Positions 130 to 63,406 of a stretch of DNA of 64,000 nucleotides are shown piece by piece (positions within the stretch are counted from its first letter, which is position 1; each line of letters opens with the position of its first letter). A program made the position numbers and the translations under genes. Source of the stretch: Eledone cirrhosa (Eukaryota); assembly GCA_964016885.1 (NCBI GenBank), contig CAXHJY010000386.1:14115-78114 (forward strand), given 5' to 3'. Under the pieces are notes generated by a model. The model did not search any database, had not been told where the DNA came from, and saw nothing but the letters and a program-made list of their open reading frames with translations.

Positions 130-556
130 AACTTCCTTTTTGTATTTCTTGTGCAAGATTTCTTAACGTGTGTTGAAACAGATATTGTTATACTTTTTTT
201 TGGGGGGGGGGGGGGCATGCTGCTAATAAAAACACACGCATCTGTAGGTTTTCACTTTAATTTATAACGAATTTCCAATTGGTTGGTTTAATAACGAGAT
301 GGTTGTTTATTTATTTTCAAAGCTCTTTCGTCCACATATTCTGTGACCTCCTGAGTGACTAATTTGTTATTTTGTGTCTCTCTTTTGTTTTGTCCCCCGA
401 TCTTGTTTTTTTAAAACAAAATAACAAATTAGTTAGGGAGGAAAAAGAATGTGTGACGAATGAGCTTTCACAATAAATAAACAACAATCCGGTTATTAAA
501 CCAACCCACTGGAAATTTGTAATACATTAGCAGCATAACCCTCCCAAAGTATAACA
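130..556. mobile_element. Palindromic copy of the Penelope-type terminal-repeat family (same family as 17361-17901)
   Basis: About 180-345 is inverted relative to about 447-556. Shares gtgtgttgaaac.gatattgttatac and gtgtgacgaa.gagcttt with the copies at 17.4-18.6 kb and 34.1 kb. The hammerhead core is mutated here (CTCAGGA on the minus strand). Confidence 0.65.
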
Positions 557-4601: not shown

Positions 4602-4802
4602 GTAGGTTGTACTCCTCCCGATTTTGCATAGGAAAACATAAGTGGACACGAGAAGTCTCAAAGGTGGCTGGAATGGAAAGGAAAGGAAGCAGTCAGTAAA
4701 GTCCCAGTATTTGGTTATCTTTCTCTCCTCTACATTACAGATGGAGGTGCCTGGCCATTTGGCTGAAGCAACAATTTTGGAAGTGGAGATTGTGTCACAG
4801 CA

Positions 4803-6208
4803 TGGGACATCCCAATATTGGAGGTAGAGAATATGTGACAGTATGTGACATCCATATATTGGAGGTAGAGAATATGTGACAGTACGTGACATCCCAATGT
4901 TGGAGGTAGAGAATGTGTGACAGTACGTGACATCCCAATGTTGGAGGTAGAGAATGTGTGACAGTACGTGACATCCCAATGTTGGAGGTAGAGAATATGT
5001 GACAGTACGTGACATCCCAATGTTGGAGGTAGAGAATATGTGACAGTACGTGACATCCCAATGTTGGAGGTAGAGAATATGTGACAGTACGTGACATCCC
5101 AATGTTGGAGGTAGAGAATATGTGACAGTATGTGACATCCCAATGTTGGAGGTAGAGAATATGTGACAGTACGTGACATCCCAATGTTGGAGGTAGAGAA
5201 TATGTGACAGTACGTGACATCCCAATGTTGGAGGTAGAGAATATGTGACAGTACGTGACATCCCAATGTTGGAGGTAGAGAATATGTGACAGTACGTGAC
5301 ATCCCAATGTTGGAGGTAGAGAATATGTGACAGTACGTGACATCCCAATGTTGGAGGTAGAGAATATGTGACAGTACGTGACATCCCAATGTTGGAGGTA
5401 GAGAATATGTGACAGTACGTGACATCCCAATGTTGGAGGTAGAGAATATGTGACAGTATGTGACATCCCAATGTTGGAGGTAGAGAATGTGTGACAGTAC
5501 GTGACATCCCAATGTTGGAGGTAGAGAATATGTGACAGTATGTGACATCCCAATGTTGGAGGTAGAGAATGTGTGACAGTACGTGACATCCCAATGTTGG
5601 AGGTAGAGAATATGTGACAGTATGTGACATCCCAATGTTGGAGGTAGAGAATAGGTGACAGTACGTGACATCCCAATGTTGGAGGTAGAGAATATGTGAC
5701 AGTACGTGACATCCCAATGTTGGAGGTAGAGAATATGTGACAGTACGTGACATCCCAATGTTGGAGGTAGAGAATATGTGACAGTATGTGACATCCCAAT
5801 GTTGGAGGTAGAGAATATGTGACAGTACGTGACATCCCAATGTTGGAGGTAGAGAATATGTGACAGTACGTGACATCCCAATGTTGGAGGTAGAGAATGT
5901 GTGACAGTACGTGACATCCCAATGTTGGAGGTAGAGAATATGTGACAGTACGTGACATCCCAATGTTGGAAGTAGAGAATGTGTGACAGTACGTGACATC
6001 CCAATGTTGGAGGTAGAGAATATGTGACAGTACGTGACATCCCAATGTTGGAGGTAGAGAATGTGTGACAGTACGTGACATCCCAATGTTGGAGGTAGAG
6101 AATGTGTGACAGTATGTGACATCCCAATGTTGGAGGTAGAGAATGTGTGACAGTATGTGACATCCCAATGTTGGAGGTAGAGAATATGTGACAGTACGAG
6201 ACATCCCA
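4803..6208. repeat. 41-bp minisatellite, about 34 highly homogeneous copies
   Basis: Unit gtgacatcccaatgttggaggtagagaatatgtgacagtac; produces the three spurious minus-strand ORFs. Confidence 0.97.
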
Positions 6209-6296
6209 AGAATAGAGTCAGAGAACTTGTTGCAGCCTGTGACGTCCCATTGTAATAGTTCACTTTTATTTTCTACATACTTCAAACAAAGATTAA

Positions 6297-15625: not shown

Positions 15626-16758
15626 GGGTGTAGATCGTTGTTGTCATTACCATCATCAATGTCATCATCATCATCATAATCATCATTATAGTCATCTATA
15701 TATATATATGTGTGTATATATATATATATATATGTTTGTGTGTGTGTGTGATATATATATATATGTTTGTGTGTGTATATATATATATATATACACATAT
15801 ATATATATACACACACAGTCCTCAAACATATATATATATATATATATGTTTGTGTGTGTGTGTGATATATATATATATGTTTGTGTGTGTATATCATCAT
15901 CATTTTACGTCCGCTTTTCCCTGCTTGCAAGGGTGGGACACATATATACACATATATATATATACACATATATATATATACACACACAGTCCTCAAACAT
16001 ATATATATATATATATATATATCTCACGCTGTGAGATGGGTTAGCCTCCCCATATTGGTACTATCCAGTACTGGGCTCCAACTGGCCTCTTCACATAGTG
16101 GTGCTATCCAATGCCAGACTCCTAAACTGTGGCCCCACACCTGTCCCTCCTCATCCAGTACCAGGCCCCCAAAATGGTGGCTATGCTGTGAGACGGGTTA
16201 GGCTCCTCATATCGGTGCCTTCCAGTACCAGGTTCCTAAACTATGGTTCCACTGTTAGATTGGTTGGGCTCCAAAACTGTCATTCCGTTGTGAGACAGGT
16301 TAGGCACGGCCAACTTGCCCGTCCCTCCTCTACACAGAGCCATCCAGTCCCATACTGTAACTGTGCTTGATGTTAGGAAGGACATCTAGCCTTAAAATAC
16401 CCAGCCAAATTTACAGACCTCGACAGAGCAAGGTGTGACAAGGCTAATCCTGGCTAGACTTGCCTTCCAGCATCGATGACTCGTCTAACCCATGCAAGCA
16501 TGAAAGAATTGAAGCTAATTGGAAATGATGATGATGATGATAATGGTGCTTCTTTGTTGAAATCAATGCCTCACTGAATTGTTGCTAAAGGTCATCAAAC
16601 AAAGTAATAATTTGGAATAGATAATTTGTAGCGTCATTATTTGTGTTGTATGTTTGTAAAAATATATTCTTTTTATCTAATAATTGTACCTCATTCAATA
16701 TTAACCTAATCTAATGAAATTATTGGGGAGGTCTCTGAATTATGCTCAACACTGTATG

Positions 16759-16791
<33 letters not shown>

Positions 16792-16814
16792 TTATATATA
16801 TATATTTATATATT

Positions 16815-16939
<125 letters not shown>

Positions 16940-16946
16940 ACATTTT

Positions 16947-16979
<33 letters not shown>

Positions 16980-16994
16980 TTATATATACATTTT

Positions 16995-17029
<35 letters not shown>

Positions 17030-17032
17030 ATT

Positions 17033-17063
<31 letters not shown>

Positions 17064-17066
17064 ATT

Positions 17067-17115
<49 letters not shown>

Positions 17116-17134
17116 ATTTATATATATATATATT

Positions 17135-17165
<31 letters not shown>

Positions 17166-17168
17166 ATT

Positions 17169-17217
<49 letters not shown>

Positions 17218-17258
17218 ATTTATATATATATATTTATATATTTATATATATATATATT

Positions 17259-17307
<49 letters not shown>

Positions 17308-17360
17308 ATTTATATATATATATTTATATATATATTTATATATATATATATTTATATATA

Positions 17361-17901
17361 TATTGTTATACTTTGGGAGGGTCATGTTACCAATAAGAAA
17401 CACACGTACCAGTTGCTTTCACTTCAATTTATTATAATAAATTTATAAATTTAGGAATTTATAAATTTCTGGTTGGTTGGTTGGTTCCACAACCAGATAT
17501 TTGTTTATATATTGTCAAAGTTCTTTCGTCACACATTCTATGACCTCTTCAGTGACTGGGGATTCTTTTCTTTGTTTTTGTGTCTCTCCTTTGTTCTGTC
17601 CTACGCCACACAGAAACAAAATGGCGTAGGACAGAACAAAGGAGAGACACAAAAACAAAGAAAAGAATGCCTGTCACTGAAGAGGTCACAGAATGTGTGA
17701 CGAAAGAACTTTGACAATATATAAACAACTATCTGGTTGTGGAACCAACCAACCAGAAATTTATAAATTTATTATAATAAATTGAAGGGAAAGCAACTGG
17801 TGCGTGTGTTTCTTATTGGCAACATGACCCTCCCAAAGTATAACAATATCGGTTTCAACACACGATTTCAGATAAAGAATCTTGCTAAACAAATTCAGAA
17901 A
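17361..17901. mobile_element. Palindromic (arms about 240 bp) Penelope-type terminal-repeat element
   Basis: 17361-17608 is inverted to 17622-17849 around a 13-nt loop; each arm carries a hammerhead-like motif. Confidence 0.75.
17672..17716 (+). ncRNA. Candidate minimal type I hammerhead ribozyme
   Basis: TGTCA-CTGAAGA-G-GTCACA(gaatg)TGTGAC-GAAA-GAAC-TT-TGACA: stem I 5 bp, stem II 6 bp, minimal stem III, one extra G after the core. Mirror copy on the minus strand at 17514-17556. Confidence 0.6.
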
Positions 17902-17996
17902 CTTTATATATATATATATTTATATATATATATATTTATATATATATATATATATATTTAATTATTTATATATTTATTTATATATATATATATATA

Positions 17997-18037
<41 letters not shown>

Positions 18038-18058
18038 TTATATATATATATATTTATT

Positions 18059-18137
<79 letters not shown>

Positions 18138-18420
18138 TTATATATATATTTATATATATATTTATATATATTTATATATATATTTATATATATTTATATA
18201 TATATATTTATATATATTTATATATATATATTTATATATATTTATATATATATATATATTTATATATATTTATATATATATATATTTATATATATTTATA
18301 TATATATATATTTATATATATATATATTTATATATATATATATTTATATATATATATATTTATATATATATATTTATATATATATATATTTATATATATA
18401 TATTTATATATATATATTTC

Positions 18421-18645
18421 ATTTCTGAATTTGTTTAGCAAGATTCTTTATCTGAAAACGTGTGTTGAAACCGATATTGTTATACTTTGGGAGGGTCATG
18501 TTGCCAATAAGAAACACACGCACCAGTTGATTTCACTTCAATTTATTATAATAAATTTATAAATTTATTATAATAAATTGAAGTGAAAGCAACTGGTGCG
18601 TGTGTTTCTTATTGGCAACATGACCCTCCCAAAGTATAACAATAT
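18421..18645. mobile_element. Second palindrome of the same family, with no loop (centre 18559/18560)
   Basis: 18475-18559 is inverted to 18560-18645; 18421-18560 is also inverted to 17760-17901. Confidence 0.8.
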
Positions 18646-18838
18646 ATATATATATTTATATATATATATATTTATATATATATTTATATATATATTTATA
18701 TATATATTTATATATATATATTTATATATATATTTATATATATATATTTATATATGTATTTATTTATATATATATTTATATATATATATATTTATATATA
18801 TATATATTTATATATATATATATTTATATATATTTATT

Positions 18839-18873
<35 letters not shown>

Positions 18874-18954
18874 ATTTATATATATATATATTTATATATA
18901 TATATATTTATATATACATATATTTATATATATATATATTTATATATATATATT

Positions 18955-18989
<35 letters not shown>

Positions 18990-19138
18990 ATTTATATATA
19001 TATATATTTATATATATATATATATATTTATATATATTTATATATATTTATATATATTTATATATATTTATATATATTTATATATATATATATTTATATA
19101 TATATATATTTATATATATATATATTTATATATATATA

Positions 19139-19377
<239 letters not shown>

Positions 19378-19380
19378 ATT

Positions 19381-19503
<123 letters not shown>

Positions 19504-19530
19504 ATATATTTATATATTTATATATATATT

Positions 19531-19563
<33 letters not shown>

Positions 19564-19666
19564 ATATATTTATATATTTATATATTTATTTATATATTTA
19601 TATATTTATATATATATTTATATATTTATATATATATTTATATATTTATATATATATTTATATATT

Positions 19667-19697
<31 letters not shown>

Positions 19698-19698
19698 T

Positions 19699-19787
<89 letters not shown>

Positions 19788-21689: not shown

Positions 21690-22405
21690 TGACATAAGTC
21701 ACTATGATCTGTTGCAGCATGTTATGTCACAGCAAAAGTCCTGTCACATGTAATTATGATTTGTTAATGTTATGTCACAATCACTGTGATATAGGCCACT
21801 ATGATCTGTTACATGTTGTGTCACAATCACTGTGATATAGGCCACTATGATCTGTTACATGTTGTGTCACAATCAGTGATATAGGCCACTATGATCTGTT
21901 ACATGTTATGTCACAATCACTGTGATATAGGGCACTATGATCTGTTACATGTTATGTCACAATCACTGTGATATAGGCCACTATGATCTGTTACATGTTG
22001 TGTCACAATCACTGTGATATAGGGCACTATGATCTGTTACATGGTGTGTCACAATCACTGTGATATAGGGCACTATGATCTGTTACATGTTGTGTCACAA
22101 TCACTGTGATATAGGGCACTATGATCTGTTACATGGTGTGTCCAAATCAGTGATATAGGCCACTATGATCTGTTACATGTTATGTCACAATCACTGTGAT
22201 ATAGGCCACTATGATCTGTTACATGTTATGTCACAATCACTGTGATATAGGCCACTATGATCTGTTACATGTTATGTCACAAATAACTGTGATATAGGCC
22301 ACTATGATCTGTTACATGTTATGTCACAATCACTGTGATATATCACAGTCGCTGTGATATAAGCCACTATGATCTGTTACATGTTATGTCACAAATAACT
22401 GTGAA
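21690..22405. repeat. 46-bp minisatellite
   Basis: Unit ccactatgatctgttacatgttatgtcacaatcactgtgatatagg; more diverged copies extend back to about 21460. Confidence 0.93.
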
Positions 22406-32514: not shown

Positions 32515-33810
32515 AATACACCAAATACACTTTGTAAAGTAGTGGTGCCAGTGCTATGATAAAATGCACCCAATCCTCTCTGTAAAGTGAGTGCTGTTGT
32601 CATAACAGAACACACCCAGTATACTCTGTAAAGTGGTAGTGCTGGTGCCACAATAGAACACACCCAGTAGACTCTGTAAAGTAGTAGTGCTGGTGCCATG
32701 ACAGAATACACCCAGTACACTCTGTAAAGTGGTAGTCCTGGTGTCATGACAGAACACACCCAGTGCACTCTGTAAAGTGGTAGTGCTGGTGCCACAATAG
32801 AACACACCCAGTAGACTCTGTAAAGTAGTAGTGCTGGTGCCATGACAGAATACACCCAGTACACTCTGTAAAGTGGTAGTCCTGGTGTCATGACAGAACA
32901 CACCCAGTGCACTCTGTAAAGTGGTAGTACTGGTGCCACAATAGAACACACCCAATACACTCTGTAAAGTGGTAGTGCTGGTGCCATGACAGAACTCGCC
33001 CAATACACTCTGTAAAGTGGTAGTGCTGGTGCCATGACAGAACTCGCCCAATACACTCTGTAAAGTGGTAGTGCTGGTGCCATGACAGAACACACCCAGT
33101 GCACTCTGTAAAGTGGTAGTACTGGTGCCACAATAGAACACACCCAATACACTCTGTAAAGTGGTAGTGCTGGTGCCATGACAGAACTCGCCCAATACAC
33201 TCTGTAAAGTGGTAGTGCTGGTGCCATGACAGAACACACCCAGTGCACTCTGTAAAGTGGTAGTACTGGTGCCACAATAGAACACACCCAATACACTCTG
33301 TAAAGTGGTAGTGCTGGTGCCATGACAGAACTCGCCCAATACACTCTGTAAAGTGGTAGTGCTGGTGCCATGACAGAACTCGCCCAATACACTCTGTAAA
33401 GTGGTAGTGCTGGTGCCATGACAGAACACACCCAGTGCACTCTGTAAAGTGGTAGTACTGGTGCCACAATAGAACACACCCAATACACTCTGTAAAGTGG
33501 TAGTGCTGGTGCCATAACAGAACACACCCAGTACACTCTGTAAAGTGGTAGTACTGGTACCACAATAAAATACACTCTGTAAAATGGTAGCACTGGTGCC
33601 ATGACAAAATGCACCCTGTGCATTCTGTAAAAAGGTTGTGCTAGGGCATGATAAAATGCACTCAGTACACTCTGTAAAGTGCTTGATGTTAGGAAATGCA
33701 TCCAGTCACAGAAACCATGCTAAAATATGAAACATGAGCAAGATGTGGTTTTTCAACCAATCCAACTCATATAAAACACACATGATGATGATGATAATGA
33801 TGATACTATC
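32515..33810 (+). repeat. 48-bp minisatellite (about 23 copies) expanded within an RTE 3' UTR, followed by the RTE tail
   Basis: Unit ctctgtaaagtggtagtgctggtgccatgacagaacacacccagtaca runs into tgttaggaaatgcatccag...atgatgatg. Confidence 0.9.
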
Positions 33811-34074: not shown

Positions 34075-34292
34075 AGATGGTGTAGGGCAGAACATAGGAG
34101 AGAGACAAAAAAAAAAAATACCTGGTCACTGAGGAGGTCACAGAATGTGTGACGAAAGAGCTTTAATAATATATAAACCATCCGGTTATCCAACCAACCA
34201 ACCAACCGGAAATTTAAAATAAATTGAAGTGAAAACCAACAGGTGCATATGATTTTATTGGCAGCATGACCCTCCCAAAGTGTAACAATATA
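34075..34292 (+). mobile_element. Single arm of the hammerhead-bearing Penelope-type repeat
   Basis: ggtcaCTGAGGAggtcacagaatgtgtgacGAAAgagcttt, with flanks matching 17622-17849. Confidence 0.7.

Positions 34293-47489: not shown

Positions 47490-63406
<15,917 letters not shown>

Follow-up and report, generated by a model that had tools for sequence, protein, structure and literature searches.

The locus at positions 17360-18645 of the 64,000-nucleotide stretch of Eledone cirrhosa DNA that we analysed (the window) consists of two head-to-head palindromic units inside (TA)n-type arrays. These are probably separate dead-end insertions made by double priming, each a pair of 5′-truncated pseudo-LTRs (pLTRs) in one (TA)n array. 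Judged by its sequence, each arm is the 3′ pLTR of an autonomous Penelope-like element (PLE) of ∼4.3 kb, which encodes a reverse transcriptase (RT) of telomerase-like type, followed at the C-terminus by a GIY-YIG endonuclease, in one open reading frame (ORF). The start of that ORF lies inside the pLTR, and the arms hold its first codons. The structures in the window are ordinary PLE debris, and their layout is ordinary for the class.

A sequence-only reading of the window had described the order (TA)n - arm> <arm - (TA)n - arm> <arm - (TA)n, which we recovered with the coordinates and motifs as claimed (Table 1). It had also given the first palindrome arms of ∼240 bp; the palindrome is there, but its arms are not equal, as one arm per palindrome carries an extension of 53-60 nt (the tail), which is a further part of the 5′ end of the PLE ORF. 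Within unit 1, one arm departs from the other by 3.6% in substitutions and by an indel of 20 nt. The second palindrome (18414-18645) is missing the hammerhead, and its arms overlap in the element's own self-complementary AT tract (18551-18568). Two further copies had been placed at 130-556, as a palindrome, and at 34075-34292; both are real (131-556 and 34077-34291), but the hammerhead cores of the former are damaged. A repeat search of the window was dominated by TA arrays. We note that an internal self-complementary (ATAAATTT)n tract lies at window 17437-17468 and 17756-17783, with a length that varies between arms, and that this tract is a recurrent truncation or junction point (unit 2, L050, L051).

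Table 1. Features of the locus and of related copies in the window (positions are those of the window).
Feature	Position	Strand	Basis or detail
(TA)n-type array, left flank and target	16755-17363	.	TRF
Unit 1 arm A, 5′-truncated 3′ pLTR of PLE, short end at ATG+26	17360-17608	-	93% to natural full-length copy
Type I hammerhead motif	17514-17556	-	4-bp stem I; one U-G pair in stem II
Unit 1 arm B, 5′-truncated 3′ pLTR with tail, end at ATG+79 (family mode +86)	17609-17902	+	
Type I hammerhead motif	17672-17716	+	5-bp stem I; core CUGANGA; extra base 17684; 6-bp stem II; GAAA; 2-bp stem III
First 26 codons of PLE ORF, ATG at 17824	17824-17902	+	tblastn with intact sister-family ORF as query, 77% identity
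Tail of unit 1 arm B	17850-17902	+	
(TA)n-type array separating both insertion units	17903-18413	.	TRF
Unit 2 arm A, more heavily truncated pLTR with tail (ATG+86), without hammerhead	18414-18568	-	
Unit 2 arm B, truncated pLTR, short end (ATG+26)	18551-18645	+	
(TA)n-type array, right flank	18646-19787	.	TRF
Older head-to-head unit of the same family	131-556		tailed arm -, short arm +; both hammerhead cores damaged
Solo truncated pLTR, older subfamily, short end, then (TA)n	34077-34291	+	

The parent element was traced by searching the species' own genome (3.0 Gb), where scoring of 40 of 766 candidates gave 30 loci. GIY-YIG or RT coding sequence lies upstream of the arm in L006, L007, L011, L025, L027, and L029, and three of ten wider stretches (L031-L033) hold full pLTR-ORF-pLTR copies of ∼4.3 kb; in every one of them the ORF is broken and a truncated copy stands inverted at the 5′ end. 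In these three loci, the reading frame that starts at the equivalent of window 17824 runs on into the ORF. The PLE origin proposed in the sequence-only reading is thus borne out by the continuation of the arms into coding sequence in other copies; the family is not a non-coding one, as that reading had supposed, since tblastn identifies the ATG at 17824 as the start of the PLE ORF, coding sequence lies upstream in other copies, and full-length copies exist. In this family (family A), the matches to Pfam RVT_1 (E=6e-4) and GIY-YIG (E=2.7e-4, 21.6 bits vs a cut-off of 22.6) both fall just under the curated cut-offs. The CCHH motif is present: two Cys residues lie between the GIY and YIG strands, followed by two His residues. 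Also present are the hallmarks of endonuclease-positive PLEs: pLTRs from partial tandems, an inverted truncated copy, an optional tail, and a hammerhead motif within the pLTR. Of the 143 proteins matched at E≤0.001, the best homologue that has a name comes from Octopus vulgaris, with 67% identity.

A search of the genome with that homologue uncovered a sister family (family B), and many of the 56 places scored contain uninterrupted frames of ∼1,217 codons. Family B has probably been active recently. The predicted model of its intact RT-endonuclease has a pLDDT of 90.5; telomerase RTs take Foldseek ranks 1-6, ahead of other RTs, and a comparison with telomerase RT gave VIA Z 14.5 and rmsd 3.7 with 278 aligned. 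Taken with the RT motifs in the alignment and the weak family A match to RVT_1, the predicted model identifies the RT as telomerase-like. The intact 1,210-aa family B ORF had no Pfam match at E≤1; a PDB sequence search returned weak RT matches only, and an Atlas search returned RT/GIY-YIG clusters without names. Many family B ORFs of ∼1,210 aa are intact and near-identical (L125:532-4161; L141-L150), and copies often stand in tandem, head to tail, at a spacing of 4.1 kb. In both families, the N-terminal half includes a long asparagine-rich low-complexity stretch (L125 ORF residues ∼255-410; L032:3658-6300); N-rich inserts have been described in rotifer PLEs (PMC3846280).

The hammerhead motifs in unit 1 lie where the sequence-only reading had put them, at 17672-17716 (+) and 17514-17556 (-), with a predicted cut after 17711. 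The plus-strand motif folds at -11.8 kcal/mol with stems I and II. The core (CUGANGA / GAAA / NUH) is invariant in 12 of 12 aligned variants, a figure that is partly circular because the variants were picked by the core pattern; N7 is A, G, or C, and H17 is U or A. The family B motif was first located by its position behind the ORF, without a pattern. Stem II is 100% paired, and at two of its pairs both bases differ between family A and family B, each double change being one event and the two events lying on one branch. Stem I is only 75% paired across the variants, and is 2 bp long and weak in family B; slid controls are 17-41% paired. With a conserved core and a stem II that covaries between families, the hammerhead identity is supported. 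Of the 131 matches at E≤1 in an Rfam scan of the window, none was to a hammerhead family. A loose hammerhead pattern aimed at further families gave, among the matches listed, sister-family variants only; overlapping matches swell the strand counts of this pattern, and these are left out.

The same reading had noted an extra G between CUGANGA and stem II in all copies. The position is indeed shared, but the base is G in most family A copies, T (U) in a few, and T (U) in family B, so what is conserved is the extra position and not the G. The motif resembles the minimal hammerheads of PLEs in being of type I with a 6-bp stem II, a 4-5-bp stem I, a tiny stem III, an extra base between 9 and 10.1, and G10.1-C11.1; in the accessible text on those ribozymes, an extra base between A9 and G10.1 is reported as conserved, and D. 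virilis has a 2-bp stem I, as family B does (Cervera and de la Pena 2014, PMC4209133). Within a single arm, stem II has a predicted pairing probability of 0.96-0.995, which falls to 0.0 on either strand of the palindrome. A transcript reading through the palindrome is therefore predicted to form the long hairpin that had been expected, but without the foldable ribozyme motif that it had been expected to contain. The predicted dimer helix is weak in the window subfamily (-1.2 kcal/mol vs -6.9 in the older subfamily), since its stem III loop, AA, is not self-complementary. By analogy with other PLEs, the parent RNA would be where the hammerhead works, either as a dimer or assisted by protein, and in the palindrome it would be sequestered in double-stranded RNA. 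A microRNA reading of the palindromes was rejected, as the Rfam matches all fall below gathering scores and reflect the hairpin shape. The palindromes should be annotated neither as a new ribozyme element nor as a microRNA hairpin.

Copies of both families are abundant. A 30-nt pattern for the family A hammerhead core has 15,975 exact matches genome-wide vs 0 for the reversed control, so the motif in the window is not a chance match; for family B, a 29-nt core pattern has 8,708 exact matches, and its reversed control again has 0. Exact ends of family A number 13,491 for the short type and 11,671 for the tailed type, and a further 444 matches read through into the ORF. Its copies have fixed end points at +26 and +86 from the ATG, both on ATAT, like the (TA)n target; among 142 de-duplicated ends in the fetched loci, 64 lie at +26 and 52 at +86, and TA-rich sequence follows 118. 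Over the initial 200 nt of the family A ORF, ATAT/TATA 4-mers are found at +16, +23, and +83 only, and each of the two end modes sits on such a 4-mer. In family B, 38 of 70 ends lie at +26, 12 at +69/71, and 17 at +79 to +85, with TA flanks at 66; the microsatellite association seen in the sequence-only reading is supported. Family B is without ATAT at +83, and its tail end is split between a 3-nt and a 2-nt target match. A 5-nt ATATA at +47 is used by only 1 of the 70 ends, while sites with a 2-3-nt match are preferred, which indicates that pairing alone does not set the end site. From these sequences, the end position seems to be fixed first and tuned second by target match; the true RT start may lie anywhere within the match between element and target. 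Owing to the TA flanks, a target-site duplication is unreadable here.

Outer ends within inverted units are paired by type. From 60 candidate inverted pairs, we dropped 8 duplicates, 2 mixed-family rows, and 1 pair cut by a locus edge. In the fetched loci, a short end is combined with a tailed one in 37 of 38 family A units (the exception, L072, is short+short) and in all 11 family B units, one of which was read across adjoining loci. Since some loci had been chosen with a tailed query, we retested the pairing on unselected ends, namely 100 short and 86 tailed exact ends, the first ones listed on contig C1, and considered minus/plus neighbours within 10 kb. Short and tailed ends are combined in 40 of 45 such adjacent pairs (0.50 expected, P=3e-8). 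Individual inspection of the other five identified two true tail+tail units (L181, L182) and three separate insertions. The units span 205 to 7,137 nt, and their junctions differ. Partner arms belong to one subfamily in 28 of the 35 units long enough to test, the median share of other arms that lie closer than the partner being 6%; this fits one donor, but gene conversion too, and arm-to-arm similarity cannot separate one RNA template from two. One and the same unit, flanks included, occurs in L003 and L004, 0.6 Mb apart on contig C2, as a segmental duplication or an assembly duplicate.

From these genomic end patterns, we infer double priming. The element endonuclease would nick both strands of the TA repeat, and the nicked 3′ ends, which terminate in TA repeat, would each pair with AUAU in the element RNA and prime cDNA, with one priming at each of two fixed RNA sites. 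The two cDNAs would stop early and be joined at their 5′-truncated ends, often via short shared sequence, to leave a palindrome with a one-sided tail. The two tail+tail units and the short+short unit are exceptions to this rule. In the only in vitro PLE system, that of PAc, a Poseidon element of Anolis, the RT start is reported as non-homologous to the cut DNA (PMC11167929), which counts against pairing. Alternatively, the same element could have acquired its inverted arm by self-priming or template switching on one cDNA or antisense RNA, with no second target-primed event, much as was proposed for PLE palindromes from an antisense template (PMC3846280). Such a route would suit partner arms of one subfamily and the fold-back of unit 2 at an internal self-complementary tract. 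Fold-back should, however, copy the same outer end, whereas the outer ends differ by ∼60 nt in 40 of 45 pairs and fall at two fixed sites, and an internal tract of 8-bp repeats is often longer in one arm than in the other; we consider this route unlikely.

The sequence-only reading had favoured a non-coding, PLE-derived fold-back family; such a family could be non-autonomous (retrozyme- or MITE-like), with the whole palindrome copied via the PLE protein. Many loci do hold short arms only, the head-to-head pair of short arms recurs, and retrozymes have been described as non-autonomous PLE derivatives (bioRxiv 10.64898/2026.07.22.740005). Against this, the inversion point varies from unit to unit, as the unequal spans and differing junctions attest, and the palindrome is hence not multiplied as a single block; its arms reach variable lengths into endonuclease and RT coding sequence; retrozymes are head-to-tail tandems; and the sole duplicated unit seen shares its flanks and is thus a segmental duplicate. 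This explanation is already largely refuted, and we hold it to be very improbable. An assembly or sequencing artefact from fold-back chimeric reads might be suspected where long AT-rich arrays lie on both sides, and the assembled short-read contigs (three runs, one sample) are too short for any to cross the window locus. Yet the arms of unit 1 are unequal in substitutions, indel, and tail, the same design recurs at dozens of loci on large contigs, and the short-read contigs from these runs hold many left-arm/right-arm joints at varied places, all of which makes an artefact exceedingly improbable. Double-primed insertion of a coding PLE is the reading that we retain. The non-LTR retrozymes, which are non-coding head-to-tail hammerhead monomers, were also rejected, as the arms here are head-to-head and variable and run into coding sequence.

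The extra base, the inverted pairs, the one-sided tail, and the (TA)n targeting are all published PLE traits. In the accessible parts of earlier work, inverted truncated copies, a tail that is often one-ended, and (TA)n targeting tied to the zinc-finger linker are described by Craig et al. (2021, PMC8557442); a pLTR that holds the first codons, palindromic junctions, and a one-sided tail by Arkhipova et al. (2013, PMC3846280); two RT start sites that bound a tail, with both strands cut and extended in vitro, by Frangieh et al. (2024, PMC11167929); and opposite-strand hammerhead pairs 100-700 bp apart in PMC4209133. PLEs are also reported to insert beside earlier copies (PMC6765202), and PLE families of O. 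vulgaris are catalogued without detail in the available part of PMC13282606. The present units resemble the insertion units of PMC3846280 and PMC8557442 in their pLTR with first codons, head-to-head inverted truncated copy, one-ended tail, partial tandems, heavy 5′ truncation, (TA)n targeting, and pLTR hammerhead. They differ in a tail of ∼60 nt rather than 30-40 nt, and the rule of one short and one tailed end is counted here, unlike in the earlier descriptions as far as these are accessible. PAc is similar in having two RT starts in the 5′ region of the ORF that bound the tail, an AT-rich target, and a pLTR hammerhead. Its starts, however, lie at ∼+111 to +118, at a site reported as non-homologous to the cut DNA, whereas the copy ends here lie at +26 and +86, each of them on ATAT; the PAc ORF starts within the hammerhead, whereas the ATG here follows the hammerhead by ∼110 nt; and PAc, of the Poseidon clade, is without the CX2-5CxxC linker.

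The affiliation of the element was examined by comparing its endonuclease and RT with published alignment rows. Both families have the endonuclease linker CX4CxxC-X7-C, the CCHH motif, YIGET, and a GIY-YIG domain at the C-terminus, and the short linker matches the Nematis rows and not the longer Neptune and Naiad rows (PMC8557442 Fig. S1-S2). A distance of 129-138 aa (median 132) separates RT3 from RT4 in 77 of 81 aligned proteins; by our own counts on published rows, Nematis and Poseidon have a distance of 63, a Naiad has 87, and human TERT has ∼118. Canonical C-terminal-endonuclease PLEs are reported, in the accessible text of PMC8557442, to be without an RT3-RT4 insertion in the fingers, and the absence of such an insertion that characterises Nematis is not seen here (median 132 aa vs 63). 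The ORF of ∼1,210 aa with its long N-terminal region and the reading DKS in place of DKG also depart from the Nematis rows. The RT3-RT4 insert has a conserved motif and is confidently modelled in the predicted structure. An insert of ∼70 aa between RT motifs 3 and 4 is conserved across a widespread C-terminal-endonuclease PLE lineage.

Three other assignments were rejected. Our first guess, the Neptune clade (see also PMC12602865), has ∼25-30 residues between CxxC and the GIY strand in its available rows vs 7 here; Naiad and Chlamys have an N-terminal endonuclease and no canonical hammerhead, whereas the endonuclease here is C-terminal and the hammerhead motif is present; and the Hydra clade is marked by absence of CCHH, CxCX5C, a length below 3 kb, and DKT, as against CCHH, CX4CxxC, 4.1-4.3 kb, and DKS here. 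We found no earlier description of the family or of the RT insert in the literature, with Repbase and Dfam outside the scope of the search. The supplement text of PMC8557442 likewise yielded none of the signature motifs of the lineage, but long sequence runs are incomplete there and the absence is hence weak. We offer, as a tentative proposal with somewhat less than even prospects, that the element belongs to an unnamed widespread PLE lineage that combines a Nematis-type C-terminal endonuclease with an RT bearing a telomerase-sized insertion in the fingers, and that it integrates by coupled double priming, in which both nicked (TA)n strands would pair with AUAU at two ruler-set RNA sites, one per strand.

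How PLEs form inverted repeats, tails, and their microsatellite bias is posed as an open question in PMC8557442. Coupled target-paired double priming, if true, would link PLE priming to telomerase-style primer-template pairing, and the long RT insert would bear on the origin of the telomerase insertion in fingers, should it be the mark of an unnamed clade. The ∼25,000 exact ends at two sites, together with the pairing within units and the target match, make up a natural data set with sharp predictions, and the intact, near-identical family B copies are a substrate that makes coupled double priming directly testable.

Other features were observed in the course of this analysis. A different RT and GIY-YIG-like element, with an RT4 motif that resembles the Hydra rows, lies at L038:2189-4393, and L037:2162-5584 (-) is an uninterrupted 1,141-aa frame, which we take to be a non-LTR retrotransposon with an RT and a C-terminal restriction-like endonuclease motif. 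In the window, positions 48840-48935 give a partial 5S rRNA match (46.7 bits vs an Rfam gathering score of 38), a pseudogene or a 5S-derived repeat. Minisatellites of 41-48 bp in 7-35 copies occupy window 4772-6209, 21755-22342, 32518-33681, 50693-51391, and 53538-53899, and a 47-48 bp minisatellite unit recurs at several places in the window.
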